From Patescibacteria group bacterium (GTDB lineage Bacteria > Patescibacteriota > Minisyncoccia > JAHIHE01 > JAGLIN01), in the NCBI GenBank assembly GCA_019428855.1, contig JAHYJV010000001.1, positions 14,885-78,884 of the forward strand: a stretch of DNA of 64,000 nt, given 5' to 3'. Under the pieces are notes generated by a model. That model saw only the letters and a program-made list of their open reading frames with translations. It did not search any database and was not told where the DNA came from. The translations under genes and the position numbers were made by a program. This document shows positions 4,885 through 63,058 of this stretch, piece by piece (position 1 is the first letter of the stretch; each line of letters opens with the position of its first letter).

Positions 4885-4953
4885 CAAAAGTATATTACTT
4901 TTTGAATTACGCAACGCAAAATATATTAATTAGTATATCTTAAAAAAATTACC

Positions 4954-5006
4954 GGAGTTCAGGTTTTAACCTGCAATCTAAAATTACAGAATAAAGTCTG
5001 AACTCC
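4954..5006 (+). other. Nested stem-loop (GGAGTTCAG[CAGGTT..AACCTG]...CTGAACTCC) downstream of tRNA-Gly
   Basis: 9-bp outer and 6-bp inner inverted repeats read directly. Function unknown. Confidence 0.3.
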
Positions 5007-5514
5007 AGATATTAGAGTTACATAATTCAATTGTGAACCAAAAAATTATAGTATTATTAGCAATAATTTTAATCGCCATTTTAGCGATAGCTATTATTGC
5101 TATGAAACAAAATCAATCTTAAAACGAAGGAACTAATAAACAGAAACTCCAACAGAAATTTTAGTTAATAAAATCTCAATATGAACGGGCAAAAGCAGAA
5201 GTATCCGATATTTTTCTTATAACAATAATTATGGCACCGAAATAAAACTCGCTTAAGGAAATATCTTAGTAGAAATTATGCAGACAGATCAGAATGTTGA
5301 ATGGAGTATTAAGTTATTTTTGTCATTGCGAGGAGCCGAAGAGACAAAGCAATCTCTCTCATGCATTTCTCATCTCTGTTATTGCGAGGAGTAGCAACGA
5401 TGAAGCAATCTATAGCTGTAACATAAGACTACTTCGCTATGAATACATAACTCGCAATAACAGAAGTATCGGCAGGGTTAATCAATAAAATAGTTAAAAA
5501 TTAAATTAAATAAT

Positions 5515-7797: not shown

Positions 7798-8084
7798 GAT
7801 TTGTCATTACTTAAATACAAGATTATGGATTCATGGTCTCGCGGGATCTTGGATGGCTAAATAGAATTTTTATTTTATAGAGAAAAGATCCCGTTGTCAT
7901 TCCGTACGCAGAGAAAAGAAGTTGAGGAATAGCTCTTTTTTTCAGTTATCATATAAATACTAATTTTTAAACTGGTCATTACCGCGGAGCAAGAATGACA
8001 ATTAAAGTCTAGGGTTAATAAGAAAGCTGTAAATGACAATCTGAAATATAATAAATAACTTTATTAAAAACTAATTTTAAACAT

Positions 8085-8549
8085 ATGACAAAAAAAAATA
8101 TCAAGAAGGTAGAAAAAATGGAAATTAAGAAGGATATGCCACAGGACCACTACTATACAAATTCAACACAATTACCAGTTAATTATACTGATGATTTATT
8201 TGAAGCAGTTGATTTACAAAATCCTTTGCAAACAAAATATACAGGTGGAACTGTGATGCATGCTTTTTTAGGTGAAAGATTGCCAAGTGGAAAAGAAGCA
8301 AAGCTGTTGGTAAAAAAAATATTTGAAAAATCTCAAATGCCATATCTTTCTCTTACTCCAACTTTTAGTGTTTGCCCAAATCATGGTTATCTTTCTGGTG
8401 AACATTTCACTTGTCCAAAATGCCTAATTGAACAACCTTGCGAAGTTTATTCAAGAGTAGTGGGATATTTGCGTCCTGTTCAACAATGGAATAAGGGAAA
8501 AGTTTCCGAATATGCGAGAAGAAAAGTATTTAAGGCTAAAATAAAATAA
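8085..8549 (+). CDS. Stand-alone NrdD C-terminal domain protein (glycyl-radical loop + Zn ribbon), copy 1
   Basis: YYTNSTQLPVNY...YTGGTVMHAFLGE...LTPTFSVCPNHGY...CPKC...YSRVVGYLRPVQQWNKGKVSEYARRKVF matches the C-terminal ~150 aa of anaerobic ribonucleoside-triphosphate reductase, including the RVxGY glycyl-radical motif. Confidence 0.8.
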   Translation: MTKKNIKKVEKMEIKKDMPQDHYYTNSTQLPVNYTDDLFEAVDLQNPLQTKYTGGTVMHAFLGERLPSGKEAKLLVKKIFEKSQMPYLSLTPTFSVCPNHGYLSGEHFTCPKCLIEQPCEVYSRVVGYLRPVQQWNKGKVSEYARRKVFKAKIK

Positions 8550-8673
8550 GATTGTTCAAGATTAACATTACCGCGGAGCAAGAATGACAATTAAAGTCTA
8601 GGGTTAATAAGAAAGCTGTAAATGACAATCTGAAATATAATAAATAACTTTATTAAAAACTAATTTTAAACAT

Positions 8674-9138
8674 ATGACAAAAAAAAATATCAAGAAGGTA
8701 GAAAAAATGGAAATTAAGAAGGATATGCCACAGGACCACTACTATACAAATTCAACACAATTACCAGTTAATTATACTGATGATTTATTTGAAGCAGTTG
8801 ATTTACAAAATCCTTTGCAAACAAAATATACAGGTGGAACTGTGATGCATGCTTTTTTAGGTGAAAGATTGCCAAGTGGAAAAGAAGCAAAGCTGTTGGT
8901 AAAAAAAATATTTGAAAAATCTCAAATGCCATATCTTTCTCTTACTCCAACTTTTAGTGTTTGCCCAAATCATGGTTATCTTTCTGGTGAACATTTCACT
9001 TGTCCAAAATGCCTAATTGAACAACCTTGCGAAGTTTATTCAAGAGTAGTGGGATATTTGCGTCCTGTTCAACAATGGAATAAGGGAAAAGTTTCCGAAT
9101 ATGCGAGAAGAAAAGTATTTAAGGCTAAAATAAAATAA
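8674..9138 (+). CDS. Stand-alone NrdD C-terminal domain protein, copy 2 (identical)
   Basis: The translation is identical to the ORF at 8085-8549. Confidence 0.8.
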   Translation: MTKKNIKKVEKMEIKKDMPQDHYYTNSTQLPVNYTDDLFEAVDLQNPLQTKYTGGTVMHAFLGERLPSGKEAKLLVKKIFEKSQMPYLSLTPTFSVCPNHGYLSGEHFTCPKCLIEQPCEVYSRVVGYLRPVQQWNKGKVSEYARRKVFKAKIK

Positions 9139-9308: not shown

Positions 9309-10004
9309 ATGAACCAGATAATGATTGAATTCGAAAATGTATCAAAAATATATAATGAAAATAGCTTTGCCCTGAAAGATATTAATTTTCAGATTGTTAA
9401 AGGAGAATTTGTTTCAATCGTTGGTCAAAGTGGTGCGGGAAAATCTACACTTTTGAAAATGGTTTTTGCAGAGGAAAATCCGACAGAAGGAAATATTTTA
9501 ATTAAGGGCAGAAACATAAGCAAAATCAAGAGTAACAAAATGCCGGTTTTGAGAAGGCACATTGGTGTTGTTTTTCAGGATTTCAAATTGCTATATGGGA
9601 AAACAGTTTTTGAAAATGTTGCTTTTGCTATGGAGGTTTCTGGAAAAACGGACAAAGAAATTAGAGAAGATGTTCCTCAAGTCTTGGAAATTGTAGGATT
9701 AGCAAGCAAGGTTGATAGTTATATAGATGAACTATCTGGTGGAGAAAGACAGAGAGTCTCAATTGCTAGAGCGTTGGTTCACAGACCAGACATTATTATT
9801 GCGGATGAGCCGACTGGAAATCTTGACCTTGTTAATACTTGGGATATAGTGCAACTTTTGATGAAAATTAATCAATACGGAACTACTATCGTTTTGGCCA
9901 CACATAATAGGGAGATTGTAAATTTAATAAACAAAAGAGTAATTACGATTGAAAAAGGAAGAATATCAAGAGATCAACACGATAATGGAAAATATCTAAT
10001 ATAA
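9309..10004 (+). CDS. ftsE: Cell-division ABC ATPase FtsE
   Basis: Walker A GQSGAGKST, signature LSGGERQRVSIARAL, Walker [13 protein letters not shown]. It lies adjacent to ftsX. Confidence 0.85.
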   Translation: MNQIMIEFENVSKIYNENSFALKDINFQIVKGEFVSIVGQSGAGKSTLLKMVFAEENPTEGNILIKGRNISKIKSNKMPVLRRHIGVVFQDFKLLYGKTVFENVAFAMEVSGKTDKEIREDVPQVLEIVGLASKVDSYIDELSGGERQRVSIARALVHRPDIIIADEPTGNLDLVNTWDIVQLLMKINQYGTTIVLATHNREIVNLINKRVITIEKGRISRDQHDNGKYLI

Positions 10005-10975: not shown

Positions 10976-11065
10976 GAATTTTAATAGGGCTCAAAATAAA
11001 GACAGTTTTTTGAAGTTGTATCTCAATAGGGTTGTTTAAGTATATTCTTGGTTTATGTAATATTC

Positions 11066-11196
11066 TTGAATTACGAAATACAACATACTTGTCACCCTGA
11101 GCTTGTCGAAGTGTTGAAGTTGCAAGAAATACTACTAATCAAGATGAATTAACTTCGACAAGACCATCATGAGAAATTTAGCTATTTCATAATTCA
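11066..11196. mobile_element. MITE copy A (variant 1) with TIRs TTGAATTACGAAAT / ATTTCATAATTCAA
   Basis: It shares termini with five other copies and its internal sequence with copy B (43322-43454). Confidence 0.55.
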
Positions 11197-11342
11197 AAAT
11201 AATATACAATTTCTAAGGGACTGTCCTTTAATGGGTTGTTCGGTCTAATTTAAATTAACTCAGTAAAATGAGTTATTTTATTGATTCGCACAGGTTGATT
11301 AGTTTCTTTTTCTGTGATATAAATTATATATTGTTCAAATAT

Positions 11343-11467: not shown

Positions 11468-11598
11468 TAATTCCTTTGAATTACGAAATGCTGTTTTCTT
11501 GTCTTCTCGAATAATATGAGAGATCTTAAAATACGGGAAATGAAACTAAATTTATTTTTAGACCATTCCGTCGCTACCGCTCTTTCGGGATGACAAAG
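11468..11598. mobile_element. MITE copy C (variant 2), truncated and lacking the 3' TIR
   Basis: The 5' TIR and internal sequence match copies D and F; the element ends at ..GGGATGACAAAG. Confidence 0.45.
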
Positions 11599-11656
11599 TA
11601 TGCTGAGTTCAGGTGCTTGATATGTTGGTTTTGATGTAATGTGCAATAGATTCTGA

Positions 11657-11818
11657 ATTACTTTGAATTAGGAAATGCTGTTTTCTTGTCATCTCGAACA
11701 ATATGAGAGATCTTAGAATATGGGAAATTAAAATAGATTTAATTTTAGATCCCTTTGTCGCTACCTCTTTTTCAGGATGACAAAAAAAGAAATGCTAATT
11801 TCGTAATTCAAAGTAATT
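11657..11818. mobile_element. MITE copy D (variant 2), complete with 21-bp TIRs AATTACTTTGAATTAGGAAAT / ATTTCGTAATTCAAAGTAATT
   Basis: Inverted termini read directly; the internal sequence is about 90% identical to C and F. Confidence 0.6.
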
Positions 11819-12116
11819 CATTAGTTCTTGACATTATTTTTTATCAGATATATACTTATGATACTTACTTACCAACTGGTAAGTAAGTAAACAAGAGACA
11901 ATAAAGGAGGAAAAAAGTATATCGAATTTAATTAAAAAAAAAGAGATATTTTTACGAAAAATCTCTTGTATAGTGTTTTTTAATTTAATTTTTCTTCGAA
12001 TAATACGCAGAAAAATTAAGCACAGAGGCTTTCGGAATTTTTTGTAGAAAAAAATATTTTTCTACACCTTTTAAAATTACAATTTTCAATATTAAGCAAT
12101 TATTAAAATATTACAT

Positions 12117-12701
12117 ATGATTAATGCCAAAGAATCAACAATGTCTACAAAAGTTTTAATCCTTGAAACCGCTGAACATCTATTTGCAGAGTTTGGTTAT
12201 TTGGGTGTTTCAATGCAGGACATTGCTAGTGCTTTGGGAATTACGAAATCGGCATTATATTATCATTTTGATAGTAAAGAAAAAATTTATTTGAAAGTAT
12301 TAGATGACGCATTTTTAGAATTCTCAGAAGAAATTCAAAAAGTAACTCTTGATAAAAAATTATCAATTGAAAAAAGGTTTCACAAAACAGTTCTTGCATA
12401 CATTGATTTTTGTTTAGAAAAAAGAGATTTGGTTAAATTAACAATGCATAAATTGTCCAATGATAATGATGGTATCGTTAAATCTATTGCTAAAATAAAA
12501 ATTAATATTATTAATCAACTTGAACCTATTGTTGAGGAATATCTTGTCTATAAAAAAAGAAGCATATTGATTAATGGCAAAATTGCGACTTACTTTCTGG
12601 TCGGTATTCTTAATGCTTTTATTCTTGGTGAGATTGTCGATGGTGGAAAAGTCTGGAAGACAAAAGATATTGTTAGGCAGATTGAAAAATTATTTTTTTA
12701 A
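12117..12701 (+). CDS. TetR/AcrR-family transcriptional regulator
   Basis: N-terminal HTH: LETAEHLFAEFGYLGVSMQDIASALGITKSALYYHFDSKEKIY. Confidence 0.8.
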   Translation: MINAKESTMSTKVLILETAEHLFAEFGYLGVSMQDIASALGITKSALYYHFDSKEKIYLKVLDDAFLEFSEEIQKVTLDKKLSIEKRFHKTVLAYIDFCLEKRDLVKLTMHKLSNDNDGIVKSIAKIKINIINQLEPIVEEYLVYKKRSILINGKIATYFLVGILNAFILGEIVDGGKVWKTKDIVRQIEKLFF

Positions 12702-22443: not shown

Positions 22444-22890
22444 TTATTTTTCTCGTAAAGCTCTTTTCATACTCACTTCAGCCTCTCTTTTTTTGATATC
22501 TTCTCGCTTGTCAATTTTCTTTTTTCCCTTACCAACACCAAACTCAAGCTTTATAAGCCCGCGAGTAGAGTATACTCTAATTGGTACTAATGTCAACCCT
22601 TTTTGGCTAATTTTTCCAAGTAGAGATTTGATTTCTTTTTTATGGATGAGAACCTTCCTAGATTGATTGGGGTCGTATTCTGGTGGCATATTTTTTACTT
22701 GATAGGCTGGGATATTGGCATTTGTTAAAAATGCTTCATTTTCATGAATTGTGACGAATGCTCCTTTAAGACTAATGTGTCCAGTTTTAATTGATTTAAC
22801 TTCATATCCAGCTAATACTAACCCACCTTCTAGTTTTTCTAGAATTTCATAATCAAAATTGACTCGTTTATTAATAGCGTATGTTGGCAT
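22444..22890 (-). CDS. smpB: SsrA-binding protein
   Basis: MPTYAINKRVNFDYEILEKLEGGLVLAGYEVKS... Confidence 0.9.
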   Translation of the reverse strand: MPTYAINKRVNFDYEILEKLEGGLVLAGYEVKSIKTGHISLKGAFVTIHENEAFLTNANIPAYQVKNMPPEYDPNQSRKVLIHKKEIKSLLGKISQKGLTLVPIRVYSTRGLIKLEFGVGKGKKKIDKREDIKKREAEVSMKRALREK

Positions 22891-23100
22891 GTTTACAATT
22901 GCTTTATTTTAAGTAATTTATTGTCATTTCAGATCCCATTTGGTAAGAAATCTCTTAGTGGATTTTTTCAGAAAACATAATAAATATCAGAATAAAATCT
23001 AGAAAATCTTTCAATTATACCTCATTTCGAGATAATAAATAATATAATTTTAGTTTAACATAAATATCGAGAATGATGAATAGAAAATGATGAAATTTCT

Positions 23101-23262
23101 AATTACTTTGAATTACGAAATACCTCCTTTTGTCATTTCGAAATGAGCGATAGCGATTGAGAAATCCCTTCAACAATGTAAATAGCGATAATAATATTGA
23201 AGGGATTCCTCGCTTAAGGCTCAAAATGACACAAAAATTTGCATTTCGCAATTCAAAGTAAT
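23101..23262. mobile_element. MITE copy E (variant 3) with TIRs AATTACTTTGAATTACGAAAT / ATTTCGCAATTCAAAGTAATT
   Basis: It carries an internal 11-bp inverted repeat AATCCCTTCAA/TTGAAGGGATT and ends 60 bp upstream of a GT4 gene. Confidence 0.6.
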
Positions 23263-23322
23263 TATTGACACTCCAGACCATAGGCTTATAATTAAAGCAG
23301 TAAATAACTAATTTGTAAATAT

Positions 23323-24480
23323 ATGAAAATTGGAATTGATGCACAAACGATTTTAAGTCCAAAACTGGGAGATGCTGCAGGGCTTGGGCATTATACTTAT
23401 CATTTGATTGACAACTTGCTTAAAATTGATCAAAAAAATAAGTATGTTTTGTTTTTTAATTATAAAGCTCGAAAAGCTGATATTGAAAAATTGAGTAAGC
23501 AAAATGTGACAATTCGAAGATTTCCTTTTTCATATTATAAAAATTTTTTGCCACTAGCATATTCTGAAACTTTGGCGACAGCTTTTTTCTTGCGTGATAA
23601 ACTTGATGTACTTTTTGTTCCAGGAGGTCGAGTGCCAATGACCTATCAGAAAAAAATTGTGGTGACGGGATATAATTTAGCCGTGAAAAAATATCCAGAA
23701 CTTTTTTCAAAAAAAGAAGCTTTGAAATATAAAATAAAACCTTCAGCTTTCAAAAGAGCTGATGTTGTAATTGCCTCAAATCAAGCTGCAAAAAGTAATA
23801 TGGAAGCTGATTTTGGGGTTGAGAGCGAAAAGATACGAGTTATTCATAATGCTTTTGATGAAGATTTTTTTCAAATTGCCAGTGTAAATGAAATTCAGAA
23901 TGTTAAAAATAAATATAAAATAGAAGGCGAATATCTATTATATATGAATACTATTAAGCCGTCTAATAATCTGCCGAAACTAATTGAAGCATTTTCAATG
24001 TTACGATTGTTATTAAAGGGTAAAAAACCAAATTCAAATTATAAATTAGTCTTAGCTGGAAAAAATGGCTGGCTCTCTGACGAAATTCATCAGGTTGCAA
24101 AAGACTTTGGCTTGAAGAATGAAGTTATTTTTCCAGGATATATTGCACAGGAAGACCTGAATCCGCTTTATAGTGGAGCTGATGTTTTTGTTTCTGTTCC
24201 AATTTATGAAGAATTTGGAGCGACAGTTTTAGAAGCGATGGCCTGCGGAATACCGGTAGTATGTTCGAATGTACCTGCCCTTTCTGAAATTACAGGCGGG
24301 GCAGTTCAATTAGTTGACCCCTATGATGTGGATCGAATTAAATGTGTGATTTTGAAAGTTCTTGATGATGATGTTTTGCGAAGAGAGATGAAGGAGAGGG
24401 GATTAGAGCAAGCCAAGAAATTTCATTGGAGAAAAACTGCAGAAGAGACCTTGAAGGTTTTGGAAGAAGTGGCGAAGTAG
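23323..24480 (+). CDS. Glycosyltransferase family 4 (GT-B, retaining)
   Basis: C-terminal EEFGATVLEAMACGIPVV motif. Confidence 0.8.
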   Translation: MKIGIDAQTILSPKLGDAAGLGHYTYHLIDNLLKIDQKNKYVLFFNYKARKADIEKLSKQNVTIRRFPFSYYKNFLPLAYSETLATAFFLRDKLDVLFVPGGRVPMTYQKKIVVTGYNLAVKKYPELFSKKEALKYKIKPSAFKRADVVIASNQAAKSNMEADFGVESEKIRVIHNAFDEDFFQIASVNEIQNVKNKYKIEGEYLLYMNTIKPSNNLPKLIEAFSMLRLLLKGKKPNSNYKLVLAGKNGWLSDEIHQVAKDFGLKNEVIFPGYIAQEDLNPLYSGADVFVSVPIYEEFGATVLEAMACGIPVVCSNVPALSEITGGAVQLVDPYDVDRIKCVILKVLDDDVLRREMKERGLEQAKKFHWRKTAEETLKVLEEVAK

Positions 24481-30755: not shown

Positions 30756-31097
30756 TATCTTTGAATTAAATCCTATTTTTCTTCGGAATTTATGCTGAAT
30801 TTATCAAAGCAAAGAGATGACAAAAAATGTGTTTGAAAGAGGTTTATGTAAAAGGCTTGAATAGCGACTAACCGCACTCTCGGAGATGATAAATTAAAAT
30901 AATTTGTGCAGTTTTGGACAAAAGCGTTAAATTTCTGTATTATTAAAATATGATAACTAATAATCAAAGGACAGTCCTTTCCTTGGTTTATTTAATTTGC
31001 ACTGATATATTTACGCAAAGCAAAGAAAACTTAAAGACTTAATAAATGAAGTAAAGGACTGTCTTTCTATCAATAACATAATCTAACATTTTAACAA

Positions 31098-32630
31098 ATG
31101 TCATTTAACTTTCCATCACCAACTCCAAATAATAAAAAAGATTATTACATTCAGAGAGGAATAGAGGTTCTTCCGGGGCTTATAACCTGGTCTTTTTTGA
31201 TTTTGAGTATATATTTATCTTTTCGTTCACCATTATATATAGCAATTTTTATTATTATCTTTGATTTATATTGGATGATTAAGGTATTTTATATCACGGT
31301 CTTTATGGTTTTCGGTTATCGGAGAATTAGGATTTGGGAAAAAATTGATTGGCTTGTAAAGTGTGAAAAAATTTCAAATGAGAAAGAGAATCTTGATTGG
31401 AGAAATTTATATCATCTAGTTATAATTCCGACCTATAAAGAGGGAATTGAAATATTAGAGCCATCATTAGACTCGCTTTTGAACTCTGATTATCCAAAGG
31501 AAAAAATGATTGTCATTTTAGCCTTCGAAGAGCGTGCCGGAAGTGAAGCAATTAAGAGAGCACAAATATTAGAGGAAAAATATTCAGGTAAATTTTTTAG
31601 CTATCTGACAACTTTTCATCCAGATGGTATTTCTGGCGAAGCAAAAGTGAAGGGAGCAAATACGAGCTGGGCAGCCGAGGAAGCAAGGTTGTTTTTGATT
31701 GAAAAAAATATAAAAAATGAAAATGTAATTGTTTCTACATTTGATTGTGATACTTGTGTACACTTTAAGTATTTTTCGTGTTTAACTTATCAGTTTTTGA
31801 AAAATCCACTTCGCCATCAATTTAGCTATCAGCCACTACCTCTATATAATAATAATATTTGGAAAACTAATAGTGTTGTCAGAGTAATAATGGTAAGTTC
31901 TTCTTTTTGGCAAATTATGCAATCTGTGCGGTATAATAAAATGGTTACCTTCTCAAGCCATTCAATGAGCTTTAAAACTTTGGTTGAAATAAATTATTGG
32001 CCGAAAGATATGATTTCTGATGACTCAATTATTTTTTGGAAATGTTTTATGCTTTATCATGGAAATTATTTCGTCGAACCAATATATTTGACAGTTTCTT
32101 TAGACGCTGTGTTGGATGATAATTATGTTAAAACACTAATAAATCAATATAAACAGCAGCGTCGTTGGGCATGGGGAATTGAGAATATTCCTGTGATATA
32201 TAGAGCATTTTTAAGCGATCATAAAATTTCGCTCAAGAAAAAAATTAGTAAAGCTTGGGAAGAATTAGCTGGAAGAATTTCGTGGGGGTTGACACCTATC
32301 ATTATCGCTTTTTTTGGATGGCTTCCTATTTGGTTTGGCGGAGATGAATTTAATCAGACCGTTATTGCTTTGAATTTACCAAAGATTTTGGGTTATCTGA
32401 TGACATTCGCTATGTTTGGTTTGTTTATTTCAATGTTTATGTCACTTTATTTACTTCCTACTCCTTCAGGGAAGGTAAGTATATTTAAGAGGGCGACAAT
32501 GGTGATTCAATGGATTCTTGCTCCTCTAGTTGCTATTCCGCTTGGTGCTTTGCCGATGATTGATGCTCAAACCAGAATGTTGTTTGGAAAATATATGGAA
32601 TTTTGGGTAACGAAAAAGGTAAGGAAGTAG
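31098..32630 (+). CDS. Membrane-embedded processive GT2 glycosyltransferase (cellulose/chitin-synthase-like)
   Basis: GT-A D motifs (IIPTYKE, TFDCDT) and QQRRWAWG (the QxxRW motif), with N- and C-terminal TM helices. Confidence 0.75.
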   Translation: MSFNFPSPTPNNKKDYYIQRGIEVLPGLITWSFLILSIYLSFRSPLYIAIFIIIFDLYWMIKVFYITVFMVFGYRRIRIWEKIDWLVKCEKISNEKENLDWRNLYHLVIIPTYKEGIEILEPSLDSLLNSDYPKEKMIVILAFEERAGSEAIKRAQILEEKYSGKFFSYLTTFHPDGISGEAKVKGANTSWAAEEARLFLIEKNIKNENVIVSTFDCDTCVHFKYFSCLTYQFLKNPLRHQFSYQPLPLYNNNIWKTNSVVRVIMVSSSFWQIMQSVRYNKMVTFSSHSMSFKTLVEINYWPKDMISDDSIIFWKCFMLYHGNYFVEPIYLTVSLDAVLDDNYVKTLINQYKQQRRWAWGIENIPVIYRAFLSDHKISLKKKISKAWEELAGRISWGLTPIIIAFFGWLPIWFGGDEFNQTVIALNLPKILGYLMTFAMFGLFISMFMSLYLLPTPSGKVSIFKRATMVIQWILAPLVAIPLGALPMIDAQTRMLFGKYMEFWVTKKVRK

Positions 32631-41609: not shown

Positions 41610-41716
41610 GGCTCTACACTAATTAGTGTGGTTGATAACTAAAGAAGTGGTAGAACGATATTGATAAATTAACAATTCATGTCACTCCTTTGAAAAATGT
41701 AATCAAAAACTCGTTT
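41610..41716 (+). repeat. Conserved intergenic module R1-R2, copy 1, containing the perfect 14-bp palindrome ACACTAATTAGTGT
   Basis: GGCTCTACACTAATTAGTGTGG...GTGGTAGAA..ATATTGATAAATTAA..CACTCCTTTGAAAAATGTAATCAAAAACTCGTTT. Homologous copies lie at 43257-43504 and 59698-59803. Confidence 0.55.
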
Positions 41717-43182: not shown

Positions 43183-43256
43183 ATATTATTTTAATAAAAA
43201 ATTTAAGATCATTATCGTTATTATACAGTTTTTTAAAACGATTGACAAATAATTTG

Positions 43257-43504
43257 GGCTCTACACTAATAATTGTGGTGAAAAGCTAAAGAAGTGGTAG
43301 AATTATATTGATAAATTATTTTTAAATTACAAAATTCAACATACTTGTCACCCTGAGCCTGTCGAAGGGTTGAAGTTACAAGAAATATTATCAATCAATA
43401 TGAATTTACTTCGACAAGCTCACCATGACAAATTTAGCTATTTCGTAATTCAAAAGAATAAACAATACACCACTCCTTAGAAAAATGATATCAAAAAACT
43501 GTTT
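43257..43504 (+). repeat. R1-R2 module, copy 2, split by the insertion of MITE copy B
   Basis: R1 (43257-43318) and R2 (43471-43504) are contiguous in copy 1 but separated here by about 150 bp carrying the MITE. Confidence 0.55.
43322..43454. mobile_element. MITE copy B (variant 1)
   Basis: AAATTACAAAATTCAACATACTTGTCACCCTGAGCCTGTCGAAGG...CTTCGACAAGCTCACCATGACAAATTTAGCTATTTCGTAATTCAAAAG is about 85% identical to copy A. Confidence 0.55.
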
Positions 43505-43571
43505 TTATATATCAAGTATTTGCTTTTCTCTCAAGCCCCTTGACGCATTTTCTAAAACTATTATAATGTAA

Positions 43572-43598
43572 TTAGCACTCTCGTAGTGCAAGTGCTAA
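43572..43598 (+). promoter_or_regulatory. CIRCE operator (TTAGCACTC-N9-AAGTGCTAA) upstream of hrcA
   Basis: Matches the CIRCE consensus TTAGCACTC-N9-GAGTGCTAA at 17 of 18 positions. Confidence 0.8.
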
Positions 43599-59367: not shown

Positions 59368-59697
59368 TTGACATAAGTCTGTTTATTAGAAAAAAGGTTC
59401 TTTGTCAAAATTTGTGGTGGTTAAGCATCGAAGTGGAACAAATGCTGATATAACCTTGGCTATATAATTTTGTCTGAAAGAAATGAGTAATTTAATAGTT
59501 CTTCTGGCTGGAGCGATAGCGGAGTGGAGTTTTACTGAAAACGCCGTGCTGTGAAATTACGGTCAAATTTTAGCTCTCGTAACATTTGACACTCCTGGAA
59601 ATTTGATTGTGCTTAGTTGGGGATTAATATCGGTAAAGATTTAGTAAGTCAAAGAGAGACTACTAATATCCTCTCGTCACTCTAGACAACATTTGAA

Positions 59698-59803
59698 AAC
59701 AGTTTTTTGATATCATTTTTCACAGGAGTGGTGGGAATTGTTAATTTATCAATATACTTCTTTTATTTTTTCATCTATCCACTATAATAATTAGTGTAGA
59801 GCC
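59698..59803 (-). repeat. R1-R2 module, copy 3 (reverse orientation)
   Basis: The reverse complement reads GGCTCTACACTAATTATTATAGTGG...ATATTGATAAATTAACAATTCCCACCACTCCTGTGAAAAATGATATCAAAAAACTGTT. Confidence 0.5.
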
Positions 59804-59844
59804 AAAAGAAATTGAATTTTTTATGTTAGTATTTAATGAAGTTT

Positions 59845-59995
59845 TTTGAATTACGAAATGAGCATTTCTTTTTTTGTCATCCCGAAAGAGCGGTAGCGAC
59901 GAAGGGATCTAAAAGTAAAGCTAGTTTCATTTCCCGTATTTTAAGATCTCTCATATTGTTCGAGATGACAAGAAAACAGCATTTCGTAATTCAAA
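59845..59995. mobile_element. MITE copy F (variant 2, reverse orientation relative to C/D)
   Basis: TTTTTGAATTACGAAATG....ATTTCGTAATTCAAAGG. It ends 30 bp upstream of a GT4 gene. Confidence 0.6.
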
Positions 59996-60024
59996 GGAAG
60001 TTATAAAATTAACTATATTAATGT

Positions 60025-61146
60025 ATGAAAATTGGAATAGATGCTAGAAGTCTTGAGAATTCAAAAACTGGAGTTGGCAGATATCTGTCTAACTTATTGA
60101 AATTTTGGAAGAATGAAAAGAGTATCCAGTTTGTTCTTTATTTTAAGGATCAAATTCCCAAAGAAGAGCTCGCTGATACTGATAATTTTGAAAAAGTGTT
60201 GTTGAAAAATCCACTTGGTTTTTCGAGTAATTTTTTCTTTCAGCATTTTTTGTTGCCCAATCGTCTTAAAAAAGATAAAATTGATTATTTCTTTTCTCCA
60301 TTTTATCTCAAGCCGATTTATTGTCCCGTAAAATCATCTATAGTCCTTCATGATATTTCTTATGAAGCTCATCCAGAGTGGTTTGATTTTAAAAGTCAAT
60401 TTGTCTTAAGAATGCTTTCAAGATATTCTGCTAAAACAGCACAGAGAATATTTACTGTTTCGTTTTATAGTAAAAAGGAGATTATTAAATACTACGGTAC
60501 TGATTCTGAAAAAATTACAGTGACTAATTTAGCTCCCGATGATAGTTTTTCAAAAATTGAGGATTTGGATAAAATAAAAACCATGAAAAAAAAATATGGC
60601 ATTGTAAAGAAATTTATTTTTTGCATTGGAACAATTTTTTCTAGAAGACATATCAGTGAAATTATTGAGGCATTTGAAAAGATTTCGGATAAAAGCTTGG
60701 AATACCAACTTTTAATTGTCGGAAAAAACGTGACGCATCCTTTTGTTGATATTGATAAAAAAATAGAGCTAATCAATCAGAATATTAAAAATAATAGCAT
60801 AATCCATCTTAATTCCGTTTCTGAGCAGGAATTAATGGCTTTGTATAGCTCTTGTGATTTTGTCATTTATCTCTCTGATTATGAGGGATTTGGTTTACCT
60901 GTGATTGAAGCTCAGTTTTTTGGCAAAGCTCTGCTTACAAGCTATAATACATCGTTGATTGAAGTAGGGGGAAATTCAGTTGAATTTGTGAAGGAAAACA
61001 CGACAGAAGAAATTCAGAGATCCATGGAGAAAGTTATTTTTAATGAAGATTACAAGGGCCAGCTAGTGCAAAAGGGTGCTGAGAATTTAAAAAGGTTTAG
61101 TTGGGAGAAGTCTGCAATGGAGACACTGAATAAGTTATTATATTGA
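60025..61146 (+). CDS. Glycosyltransferase family 4
   Basis: C-terminal EGFGLPVIEAQFFGKALL motif. Paralog of 23323-24480. Confidence 0.8.
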   Translation: MKIGIDARSLENSKTGVGRYLSNLLKFWKNEKSIQFVLYFKDQIPKEELADTDNFEKVLLKNPLGFSSNFFFQHFLLPNRLKKDKIDYFFSPFYLKPIYCPVKSSIVLHDISYEAHPEWFDFKSQFVLRMLSRYSAKTAQRIFTVSFYSKKEIIKYYGTDSEKITVTNLAPDDSFSKIEDLDKIKTMKKKYGIVKKFIFCIGTIFSRRHISEIIEAFEKISDKSLEYQLLIVGKNVTHPFVDIDKKIELINQNIKNNSIIHLNSVSEQELMALYSSCDFVIYLSDYEGFGLPVIEAQFFGKALLTSYNTSLIEVGGNSVEFVKENTTEEIQRSMEKVIFNEDYKGQLVQKGAENLKRFSWEKSAMETLNKLLY

Positions 61147-61429: not shown

Positions 61430-63058
61430 ATGTTGACATCCTTGAAAACAATTTTCATCTCAGAATTAATCCTGGTTTTTGCCATGGTTGCGGGAATTAT
61501 TCCTCAGGAATTTTCATATCTTATTTTGTTTTTGCTTTCGGTGAGCTTTCTTAAAATGAAGATGTCGGATTCCTTAAAGCTTTTTATTCTTTCAGTTCCC
61601 TTTTTTGTCGCACTACCGGCTAATGCGTTTTCAGATTCAATGAGTAGCTGGAGGGTTTTAATTCTGGTATTGTTTCTGAAATTATGTTATGAAAAGTTGT
61701 ATGCAAAAAATGTCGGAAAGTCATTTAGTTTTCTACAAATTTTCAAAAAGAGATGTCAGAGAGTTAAAAAGGAACTAAGCTATCTTAATAAAAAAAGTTA
61801 TTATAAATTATTCATATTAGTTTCTGTGTTTCTCTCCTTTACTATTGTATCTTTATTATTTGCTCAGGATATATCAGCGGGAGTGAAAAAGATATTGTTT
61901 TTTGTAAATATTATATTATTATTTCCAATTACATTATATTGCCTAGAGAGCGAGAAAGACTTAATTAATATAATTAAATATTTATTTTATTCGATTTCAA
62001 TTATTCTTTTTTTCGGATATTTTCAGTTTGGATTAACTTTTATTATTCCGTTGCACGATTTTTGGCAGTTCTGGTCGCACAATGTAATAAAGGTTCTATA
62101 TGGCGAAAATCTCAGTGTTTTATTAAGCTATAGTAATACATGGTTCTCTTATTATTCAAACTTACCACCAACATTAAGAATGTTTTCGGTGATGCCTGAT
62201 TCTCACTCATTTGCAATGATAGTTATTATTTCAATCCCATTGTTATTAGTCTTATTGTCTCAAAATATTGTTAGTAAAAGGATTTTGATTTGGACATTGA
62301 TATTGGCAGCATGTTCAATATTTTTTTCTGGAACGAGAGGTATTTGGGTTGGATTGATAATGACTTTATTCGTCGCTATGTCTCCTTTTTTTTCGTATAA
62401 GTTTACGAGAAGAAGACCATATTTAGTAAGAACAAAGAAGCATAATTTAGATAATGTGAATTCAAAAATAATTTTATATTCCATTATTTTATTTTTTATT
62501 GTCGCCCCAATTTCTTTTTTTGTATTAAGACAAAATCAAGAGATGCAATTATATAAAAATGGCGAGAAAATTGTGGTTGATGATAAGTTTAATTTATTTG
62601 AGCGGGTAAGATCAGTAACTGATTTTTCTGAAATCTCAAATAAAGGGAGACTTCAAATTTGGAAGGAAACGGTAGTTTCGATATCAGATAATACTTTTTT
62701 CGGAGTAGGTTATGGAAATTATCCTTTAGTCTTGAATGAAAGTCTGAATAATGTTAAAAGAGGTTCTTCGGCACATAATATATATTTGGACATTGCAGCG
62801 GAATTAGGAATTTTTGCATTACTGGTATTTATATTGTTAATTGTTGAAGTCTTGAGTGTTTGCCATCGTCTTTTCAAGACTCTCTCAAATGATTATTTAA
62901 AAACATTTGCAGGATCATTTTTTATCTATTTCTTCTGGATATCTGCATATGGACTTTTTGATGTTGTTATTTTCAATGACAAGGTTTTGATGTATCTTGT
63001 GGTTGTGATCGGTTTGGTTTATTTTGTACTGGAAAATCAGAAAAAACTAGAATTGTAG
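61430..63058 (+). CDS. O-antigen ligase/polymerase-like membrane protein (Wzy_C-type)
   Basis: More than 10 TM helices and a periplasmic loop with FFSGTRGIWVGLIMTLFV ... RLQIWKETVV..FFGVGYGNY. Confidence 0.5.
   Translation: MLTSLKTIFISELILVFAMVAGIIPQEFSYLILFLLSVSFLKMKMSDSLKLFILSVPFFVALPANAFSDSMSSWRVLILVLFLKLCYEKLYAKNVGKSFSFLQIFKKRCQRVKKELSYLNKKSYYKLFILVSVFLSFTIVSLLFAQDISAGVKKILFFVNIILLFPITLYCLESEKDLINIIKYLFYSISIILFFGYFQFGLTFIIPLHDFWQFWSHNVIKVLYGENLSVLLSYSNTWFSYYSNLPPTLRMFSVMPDSHSFAMIVIISIPLLLVLLSQNIVSKRILIWTLILAACSIFFSGTRGIWVGLIMTLFVAMSPFFSYKFTRRRPYLVRTKKHNLDNVNSKIILYSIILFFIVAPISFFVLRQNQEMQLYKNGEKIVVDDKFNLFERVRSVTDFSEISNKGRLQIWKETVVSISDNTFFGVGYGNYPLVLNESLNNVKRGSSAHNIYLDIAAELGIFALLVFILLIVEVLSVCHRLFKTLSNDYLKTFAGSFFIYFFWISAYGLFDVVIFNDKVLMYLVVVIGLVYFVLENQKKLEL

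Follow-up and report, generated by a model that had tools for sequence, protein, structure and literature searches.

MITEs (miniature inverted-repeat transposable elements) of prokaryotes are defined by a length of 50 to 800 bp, inverted ends of at least 10 to 15 bp, target duplications of 2 to 10 bp, and a mostly intergenic location (PMC11602168). The Correia elements (CREE/NEMIS) of Neisseria are intergenic MITEs of about 100 to 155 bp with inverted ends and long hairpins, often located by promoters and within transcripts, and they are able to generate promoters, to bind IHF, and to undergo cleavage by RNase III (PMC2649163; PMC10969869). MITEAba12 of Acinetobacter (PMC6382973) and RUP of Streptococcus pneumoniae (PMC3049150) are IS-derived MITEs whose target duplications are longer; they are likewise short and noncoding, with inverted ends and many copies. 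Their inverted ends match transposase binding sites, and a parent insertion sequence has been identified. The REP/BIME and ERIC/IRU repeats of enterobacteria are transcribed intergenic hairpins able to affect mRNA stability. REPs are GC-rich palindromes of 20 to 40 nt, linked to RAYT transposases and without target duplications. The genomes of Patescibacteria are very small and are believed to hold few mobile elements. Here, we describe a MITE family in a 64,000-nt stretch of DNA from a Patescibacteria group bacterium (contig JAHYJV010000001.1, positions 14,885 to 78,884; referred to here as the window), with emphasis on two copies, E and F, that lie upstream of the only two GT4 glycosyltransferase genes in the window, GT4-1 and GT4-2.

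E and F are two independent insertions. We consider it quite probable that both are non-autonomous cut-and-paste MITE insertions beside old promoters, that neither has donated a promoter, and that the link to GT4 genes is coincidental. The features of the two loci are as follows.

23100..23105, left target-site duplication of E, TAATTA
23106..23258, + strand, MITE copy E (153 nt), a long hairpin bounded by CTTTGAATTACGAAAT...ATTTCGCAATTCAAAG
23259..23264, right target-site duplication of E, TAATTA, adjoining the −35 box
23265..23292, + strand, putative ancestral sigma-70-type promoter of GT4-1, TTGACA-16-TATAAT, 12/12 consensus match
23323..24480, + strand, GT4-1, glycosyltransferase, 385 aa
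59824..59832, + strand, putative ancestral extended −10 box of GT4-2, TGtTAGTAT, ending 12 nt upstream of F
59838..59843, left target-site duplication of F, GAAGTT
59844..59996, − strand, MITE copy F (153 nt), interior of the B/C type between two perfect 14-nt cores
59997..60002, right target-site duplication of F, GAAGTT
60025..61146, + strand, GT4-2, glycosyltransferase, 373 aa

E and F share 16-nt inverted ends, YYTTGAATTACGAAAT. In E, the 14-nt cores TTGAATTACGAAAT (23108-23121) and ATTTCGCAATTCAA (23243-23256), together with two conserved outer bases on each side, delimit the element at 23106-23258, and the arms (23100-23133 and 23231-23264) are 82% complementary across 34 nt. The perfect cores of F lie at 59846-59859 and 59981-59994. 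A family profile built from the window copies matched E on the + strand with 88.8 bits and F on the − strand with 141.6 bits (nhmmer E-values of 5e-26 and 3e-42, respectively). Predicted RNA folds reached −51.5 kcal/mol for E (z = −7.6 versus shuffles) and −48.1 kcal/mol for F (z = −4.9); given these E-values and z-scores, both elements are far beyond chance. F is also opposite in orientation to two further window copies, B and C (87-90% complementarity over 138-184 nt). The sole open reading frame (ORF) overlapping the element is mechanical, an 87-aa TTG frame read from the other strand, and 153 nt is too short for a transposase. Because the element is short, has inverted ends and target-site duplications, occurs in many dispersed copies, and lacks coding capacity, including any internal transposase, we classify it as a MITE. 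Its length, inverted ends, duplications, and mostly intergenic location fit the definition of the 2024 Nucleic Acids Research survey (PMC11602168), and it varies in presence and absence at orthologous or paralogous sites (E and F compared with relatives; copy D within a second repeat, R2, described below). The segment upstream of E (22910-23050) had given the impression, by eye, of a decayed element; this was ruled out, as the profile did not detect it and its fold was no better than that of shuffles (z = −0.4).

Both glycosyltransferases combine an N-terminal Glyco_transf_4 domain with a C-terminal Glycos_transf_1 domain, the GT-B-fold arrangement that defines GT4, with Pfam matches above curated cut-offs (2.9e-31 and 1.5e-19, respectively, for Glycos_transf_1). 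Exact look-up of the two proteins returned no record; identical cluster representatives exist, and homologues were used instead. A collection of 5.8 billion proteins held no relative above 85% protein identity for GT4-1 or above 80% for GT4-2. Two neighboring genes are as follows.

22444..22890, − strand, smpB, divergent neighbor of GT4-1, a pairing kept in relatives
61430-63058, Wzy_C / O-antigen-ligase-like gene, downstream of GT4-2

The smpB(−)/GT4(+) pairing is common to three lineages (L001, L004, and L007) at 81-85% protein identity, and the gene order RNase Y, YmdB, HU, GT4, Wzy_C is kept in four lineages at 74-80% identity. Here, the smpB-GT4 spacer measures 432 bp; its counterparts in L004 and L007 are 97 and 178 bp long, respectively, and in L001 it consists of 675 bp of different sequence. 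The HU-GT4 spacer spans 112-240 bp in L009, L012, and L014, which have both genes on the contig, compared with 705 bp here. E and F are missing from every orthologous locus recovered (74-85% protein identity), and neither the E core nor a profile match was present at the GT4-1 loci of L001, L004, and L007. The two elements belong to different interior subtypes, run in opposite orientations, carry different duplications (TAATTA and GAAGTT), and lie at different distances from the ATG: 64 nt for E, or 58 nt counted from its right-hand duplication (ATG at 23323), and 28 nt for F (ATG at 60025). The DNA between element and ATG is unrelated at the two loci. E-like copies, 90-95% identical, also occupy other sites in the metagenome-assembled genome (MAG) C14-28. 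The differences in duplication, subtype, and orientation, the E-like copies elsewhere, and the relatives' loci without elements together establish that E and F inserted independently.

A single segmental duplication carrying a MITE and a GT4 gene to a second place would explain why both proteins start with MKIGIDA and why an element lies upstream of each gene. It has practically no probability, however, and we regard it as refuted: the proteins are only 27% identical, each has its own 74-85% orthologues in a different conserved neighborhood, the elements are unlike in the four respects given above, and the orthologous loci are empty. A preliminary description of the window had already placed the elements beside two GT4 genes, with F inverted and with unlike sequence between element and ATG, and had read them as separate insertions rather than one duplicated block; our comparison agrees with it on each of these points.

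The putative GT4-1 promoter and the full 5′ untranslated region (5′UTR) to the ATG are kept in L001, L004, and L007, all of which lack E. In the alignment (A1), which covers TTGACAC...TATAAT and the 5′UTR in four lineages, column identity is 91%. Because the hexamers and the 5′UTR are kept in relatives without the element, we take the predicted GT4-1 promoter to be old host DNA. E adjoins its −35 box from the upstream side, and the promoter lies intact downstream of E; transcription of GT4-1 would thus be predicted to begin at about 23298-23301. Since the region upstream of the −35 box is not conserved but varies among relatives, the insertion of E would have disrupted little. When JGI metagenome contigs were searched with the conserved promoter and 5′UTR of GT4-1, 0 matches were returned. 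Canonical sigma-70-type promoters appear to be in use in this organism, because the hrcA promoter TTGACG-16-TATAAT (43540-43567) is of this type and is followed at 43572-43598 by a CIRCE-like inverted repeat, TTAGCACTC-N9-AAGTGCTAA.

At GT4-2 in relatives, the HU terminator hairpin is followed by TATGTTAAAAT, an extended −10 box of the form TGnTAAAAT, from which 27-30 nt lead to the ATG. The window carries TATGTTAGTAT at 59822-59832 and, once F and one duplication are subtracted, is collinear with the relatives from the −10 box to the ATG (alignment A2, in which the TATGTTAnnAT block is invariant across five lineages). Transcription of GT4-2 is predicted to start at about 59838-59841, just before F, which would place F within the 5′UTR; the mRNA would then probably begin with a 153-nt hairpin. 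In one relative at 74% identity, L014, some 140 extra bases unrelated to F (9860-10000 of that locus) separate the conserved −10 box from the ATG of GT4-2, and the GT4-2 leader may tolerate or attract insertions.

Consensus scans found no promoter within E or F and no intrinsic terminator after either hairpin. An outward promoter or −35 box driving a neighbor, the hallmark of promoter-donating MITEs and insertion sequences, was likewise not found in the scan, and neither E nor F is predicted to donate a promoter. Rfam searches of both GT4 upstream regions yielded sub-threshold noise only. The preliminary description had proposed that the MITEs landed in promoters and might supply or disrupt them. 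Both do lie in promoter regions, give or take a few bases, but the GT4-1 and GT4-2 promoter elements appear to be conserved host DNA. It had also called for comparison with relatives lacking the MITE: the insertions are absent there, and the conserved promoters would predate the elements.

The window holds eight family members (133-153 nt), which make up about 1.8% of its DNA; six had first been counted, and G and the decayed H are additional. Overall, the window is about 32% GC, with housekeeping genes mostly on the + strand. Besides E and F, the copies are as follows.

4900..5032, + strand, MITE copy G, divergent ends, different interior, directly after tRNA-Gly
11064..11199, + strand, MITE copy A, lying between ftsX and tRNA-Gln, with an A/D-type interior and TAATAT as its flanking repeat
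11474..11606, + strand, MITE copy B, without right end, in tandem with C, both near tRNA-Gln
11661..11813, + strand, MITE copy C, 14 nt upstream of a predicted promoter, TTGACA-17-TATACT (11828-11856)
43320..43455, + strand, MITE copy D, left end decayed, inside an R2 copy between corA and hrcA
44930..~45079, + strand, MITE copy H, decayed, including its right end, E-like interior

Beyond the window, one genome per species was surveyed for 185,579 species with the pattern TTGAATTRYGAAAT-N(100-125)-ATTTCRYAATTCAA; this pattern demanded exact ends, so that the apparent conservation of the ends is partly built in. The survey returned 77 stretches with about 80 copies. Nearly all stretches come from diverse Patescibacteria (MAG labels include Patescibacteria, Paceibacterota, Parcubacteria, and Saccharibacteria), and the candidate groups bearing the element include Staskawicz-, Kuenen-, Magasanik-, Falkow-, Vogel-, Azam-, and Wildermuthbacteria, of which Kuenen- and Staskawiczbacteria are ranked by NCBI as separate candidate phyla. 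GC content of the element-bearing loci ranges from 28% to 57%. A few records (L069 and L083 of JAACEG01; L035, L039, and others) come from MAGs labelled Lysobacteraceae, Gammaproteobacteria (38-46% GC), and KSB1. The "Lysobacteraceae" MAG (29-32% GC) is surely mislabelled; the MAGs labelled "Gammaproteobacteria" and KSB1 may be wrongly labelled bins or may reflect genuine transfer beyond Patescibacteria. Many copies sit about 30-220 nt from locus or contig ends (L030, L031, L072, L075, L078, L080, and L085), and the repeat is a probable cause of broken assemblies among MAGs of Patescibacteria.

The ends consist of the 14-nt core plus two further pyrimidine positions on each side. Of 80 copies, 55% are flanked by exact direct repeats of 6 bp or more, a share that drops to 2.9% for flanks taken from different copies. 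The modal duplication is 7 bp; in the 7-bp register, flanks match at 4.31 of 7 positions (control, 2.89 ± 0.13). Most duplications start with TA, the commonest being TAATTA, and clear non-palindromic examples include TACTCTA, TAGAATA, CTATGAG, TATAACT, and TTTCAAA. A simple TA duplication, as in Correia or IS630 elements, is ruled out by the 7-bp register in many copies. The idea that TAATTAC extends the inverted repeat was also rejected: TAATTA is a common palindromic target, and the non-palindromic duplications are direct repeats. Interiors fall into at least four unrelated subtypes, and copies outside the window range from 49 to 180 nt, with minimal forms of 49-51 nt. Since the interiors vary to this extent, the ends are the constant part of the element.

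Relatives contain hairpin elements that have diverged but share the TGTCATTTCG...CGAGATGACA interior (L007 16228-16397, L001 11997-12116, L011 1476-1607, and L009 20447-20586). These relatives are without exact TTGAATTACGAAAT ends; the ends of the L007 element read TTTGGATCACGAAAC. Within the window, three arms of the motif GTCATTGCGAGGAG...GCAATC (5316-5470; two direct and one inverted) lack TTGAATTACGAAAT ends. The motif resembles the interior of E-type elements, and the E-type interior module may exist independently of MITE ends.

Several features separate the family from the described systems. Correia elements duplicate TA, have ends that carry −35 and −10 boxes, and are confined to one genus, whereas the present family duplicates 7 bp, shows no consensus promoter in E or F, and spans many Patescibacteria lineages. 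The Neisseria-specific 26-bp inverted repeat of Correia elements is one that we take to be unrelated to the YYTTGAATTACGAAAT ends; with neither the TA duplication nor the 26-bp repeat, the present family does not belong to the Correia group. MITEAba12 and RUP also vary in presence and absence from strain to strain, but no parent was found for the present element among the loci surveyed, and its interiors, with their subtypes and minimal forms, are far more varied. The window copies, at 133-153 nt, AT-rich, and with 16-nt inverted ends and 7-bp duplications, do not belong with REP/BIME. The main text of the prokaryote-wide MITE survey makes no mention of Patescibacteria or candidate phyla (PMC11602168). 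No searchable paper contains the YYTTGAATTACGAAAT end sequence, no published description of the element was found, and no paper links MITEs with Patescibacteria in substance. Rfam, searched at its gathering score, recognized only tmRNA and three tRNAs in the window, with no match to the element, and gave no match in four element-bearing loci; viral contigs scanned for the element returned 0 matches. The element is of an ordinary kind, but its family is apparently undescribed and has an unusually wide distribution.

The preliminary description had gone on to suggest that the elements drive surface-glycan variation through a special tie to glycan genes. This idea fared poorly: a tblastn search with both GT4 proteins against 521 kb around the ~80 copies in other genomes gave a single match (L019). 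In those genomes, element sides face a gene start 69 times (median distance, 47 nt) and a gene end 70 times (median, 65 nt), and copies often precede a start codon by 20-30 nt. Proximity to a start codon is the expected look of any intergenic insertion in these compact genomes. Because other genomes show one GT4 match and equal facing of gene starts and ends, it is most likely a coincidence that both neighbors here are GT4 genes.

The mechanism we favor is the following. Conserved 16-nt inverted ends would enclose a variable, hairpin-forming interior, and the element would be mobilised in trans, presumably by a DDE-type transposase that, judging from the target-site duplications, would cut with a 7-bp stagger at TA-rich targets. 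In a compact Patescibacteria genome, TA-rich noncoding DNA would consist mostly of promoters, leaders, and terminators, so that copies would come to lie tens of bases from gene borders. E would have landed flush with the upstream edge of a conserved consensus −35 box, leaving the promoter intact, and F a few bases past the predicted GT4-2 transcription start, after the conserved extended −10 box. The GT4-2 mRNA would probably carry the 153-nt hairpin (about −48 kcal/mol) at its 5′ end. The expected effects are modest, namely, a changed upstream context for GT4-1 and a changed 5′UTR stability or processing for GT4-2.

Several observations weigh against this account. The end of F forms the only promoter candidate at the two elements, a weak hybrid with host DNA (TTCAAA in the element end, an 18-nt spacer, and TATATT; 59990-60019; 9/12), and both transcription starts are predictions from consensus and conservation. 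E and F have 6 exact duplicated bases each rather than the modal 7. No autonomous parent was found, in that no ends 0.7-3.5 kb apart enclosed an ORF among the element loci surveyed, and a search that tolerated up to 3 mismatches in the ends, at spacings of 20-3500 bp, returned only short elements or chance pairs; none of 30 window proteins has a transposase domain. Of the seven spacers in the window that bear elements, two lie ahead of its only two GT4 genes, for which uniform placement among ~55 spacers gives a nominal probability of ~0.014 by our own arithmetic in a post hoc test.

Some of these observations would fit regulatory co-option better, that is, insertions retained because they altered GT4 expression and so added to surface-glycan variation, as with Correia elements in Neisseria, which are documented creators of promoters and targets of RNase III (PMC2649163). 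Co-option could act, for example, through the hybrid promoter, a change in an upstream element, processing by RNase III, or a more stable mRNA. Both insertions hit sensitive sites (E flush with a −35 box, F between a −10 box and the ATG), both GT4 genes of the window are concerned, the F end brings a TTCAAA that pairs with TATATT across an 18-nt spacer, and a −48-kcal/mol duplex at an mRNA 5′ end is the kind of structure that would be expected to alter decay. We nevertheless consider co-option unlikely: the promoters appear older than the elements, neither element contains a consensus promoter, and the hybrid promoter, if used, would start transcription at or after the ATG. Moreover, the GT4 association is not seen in other genomes, and proximity to gene starts is generic to the family, which adjoins gene ends just as often.

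Less probable still is that the elements are host-functional hairpin modules, such as protein-binding sites, insulators or terminators, or structured RNAs, whose ends are under selection, rather than selfish transposons. The 14-nt ends are identical in genomes of 28% to 57% GC from several candidate phyla, whereas the interiors differ, every subtype retains hairpin potential, and half of the copies lie directly after gene ends, all of which such modules would explain. But the target-site duplications and orthologous presence/absence show transposition, no T run follows the hairpin and no terminator was called, and no Rfam family matches. Both strands of F fold alike (−48.1 and −47.7 kcal/mol), which fits a DNA palindrome rather than a strand-specific RNA. 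In addition, the exact-end survey builds in conservation, and relatives with diverged ends exist, as in L007. Transposon insertion beside old promoters remains the explanation we prefer.

The window contains other repeats as well. Copy D splits one of three copies of R2, an unrelated repeat of ~110 nt, and the other two, being uninterrupted, represent empty sites.

41610-41716, − strand, repeat R2
43246-43318 and 43457-43510, − strand, repeat R2, split by D
59691-59803, + strand, repeat R2

R2 ends in GTGTAGAGCC, contains the internal palindromes TTGATATCA and CTACACTAATTAGTGTGG, and lies directly upstream of the cysS, corA, and GT4-2 promoter regions in the same orientation at all three. It was not found in relatives at GT4-2 or in any other locus compared, and it may be another mobile or regulatory module. 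The copy at 59691-59803, directly upstream of the GT4-2 −10 box, is part of ~470 bp without counterpart in relatives. The remainder, 59370-59690 (~320 bp between the HU terminator and R2), begins with TTGACA just past the terminator; relatives have nothing corresponding to it, Rfam gave no match, and it resembles none of the loci compared.

Downstream of the promoter that follows copy C, and upstream of a TetR-family gene (12117-12701), lies a perfect 12-2-12 palindrome, ACTTACTTACCA-AC-TGGTAAGTAAGT (11863-11888), which is probably the operator of the TetR-family repressor. Palindromes of the type AAAGGACAGTCCTTT (GGAC-N-GTCC) recur in intergenic DNA at 11217-11235, at 30958-31075, and at ~9950-9965 of L014; one such pair lies upstream of a GT2 gene at 31098, and one lies in the GT4-2 5′ region of L014. 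A 300-nt tandem duplication with 97% identity (7955-8254 and 8544-8843, 589 nt apart) overlaps two 154-aa ORFs (8085-8549 and 8674-9138), the first of which matches only the C-terminal end of the anaerobic ribonucleotide reductase NrdD.

A much broader reading, which we consider doubtful, is that the family forms an undescribed Patescibacteria-wide MITE superfamily whose ends are kept by a possibly host-retained transposase and which is a main source of regulatory change, GT4 genes included. If that were true, its preference for TA-rich targets would place copies in the promoters and 5′UTRs of streamlined genomes. With host promoters that appear to be old, the insertions call for caution and are not to be taken as glycan phase variation without transcript data. 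The family offers a handle for finding the transposase responsible, a marker for recent genome change in unculturable organisms, and an explanation for some of the contig breaks in Patescibacteria assemblies.

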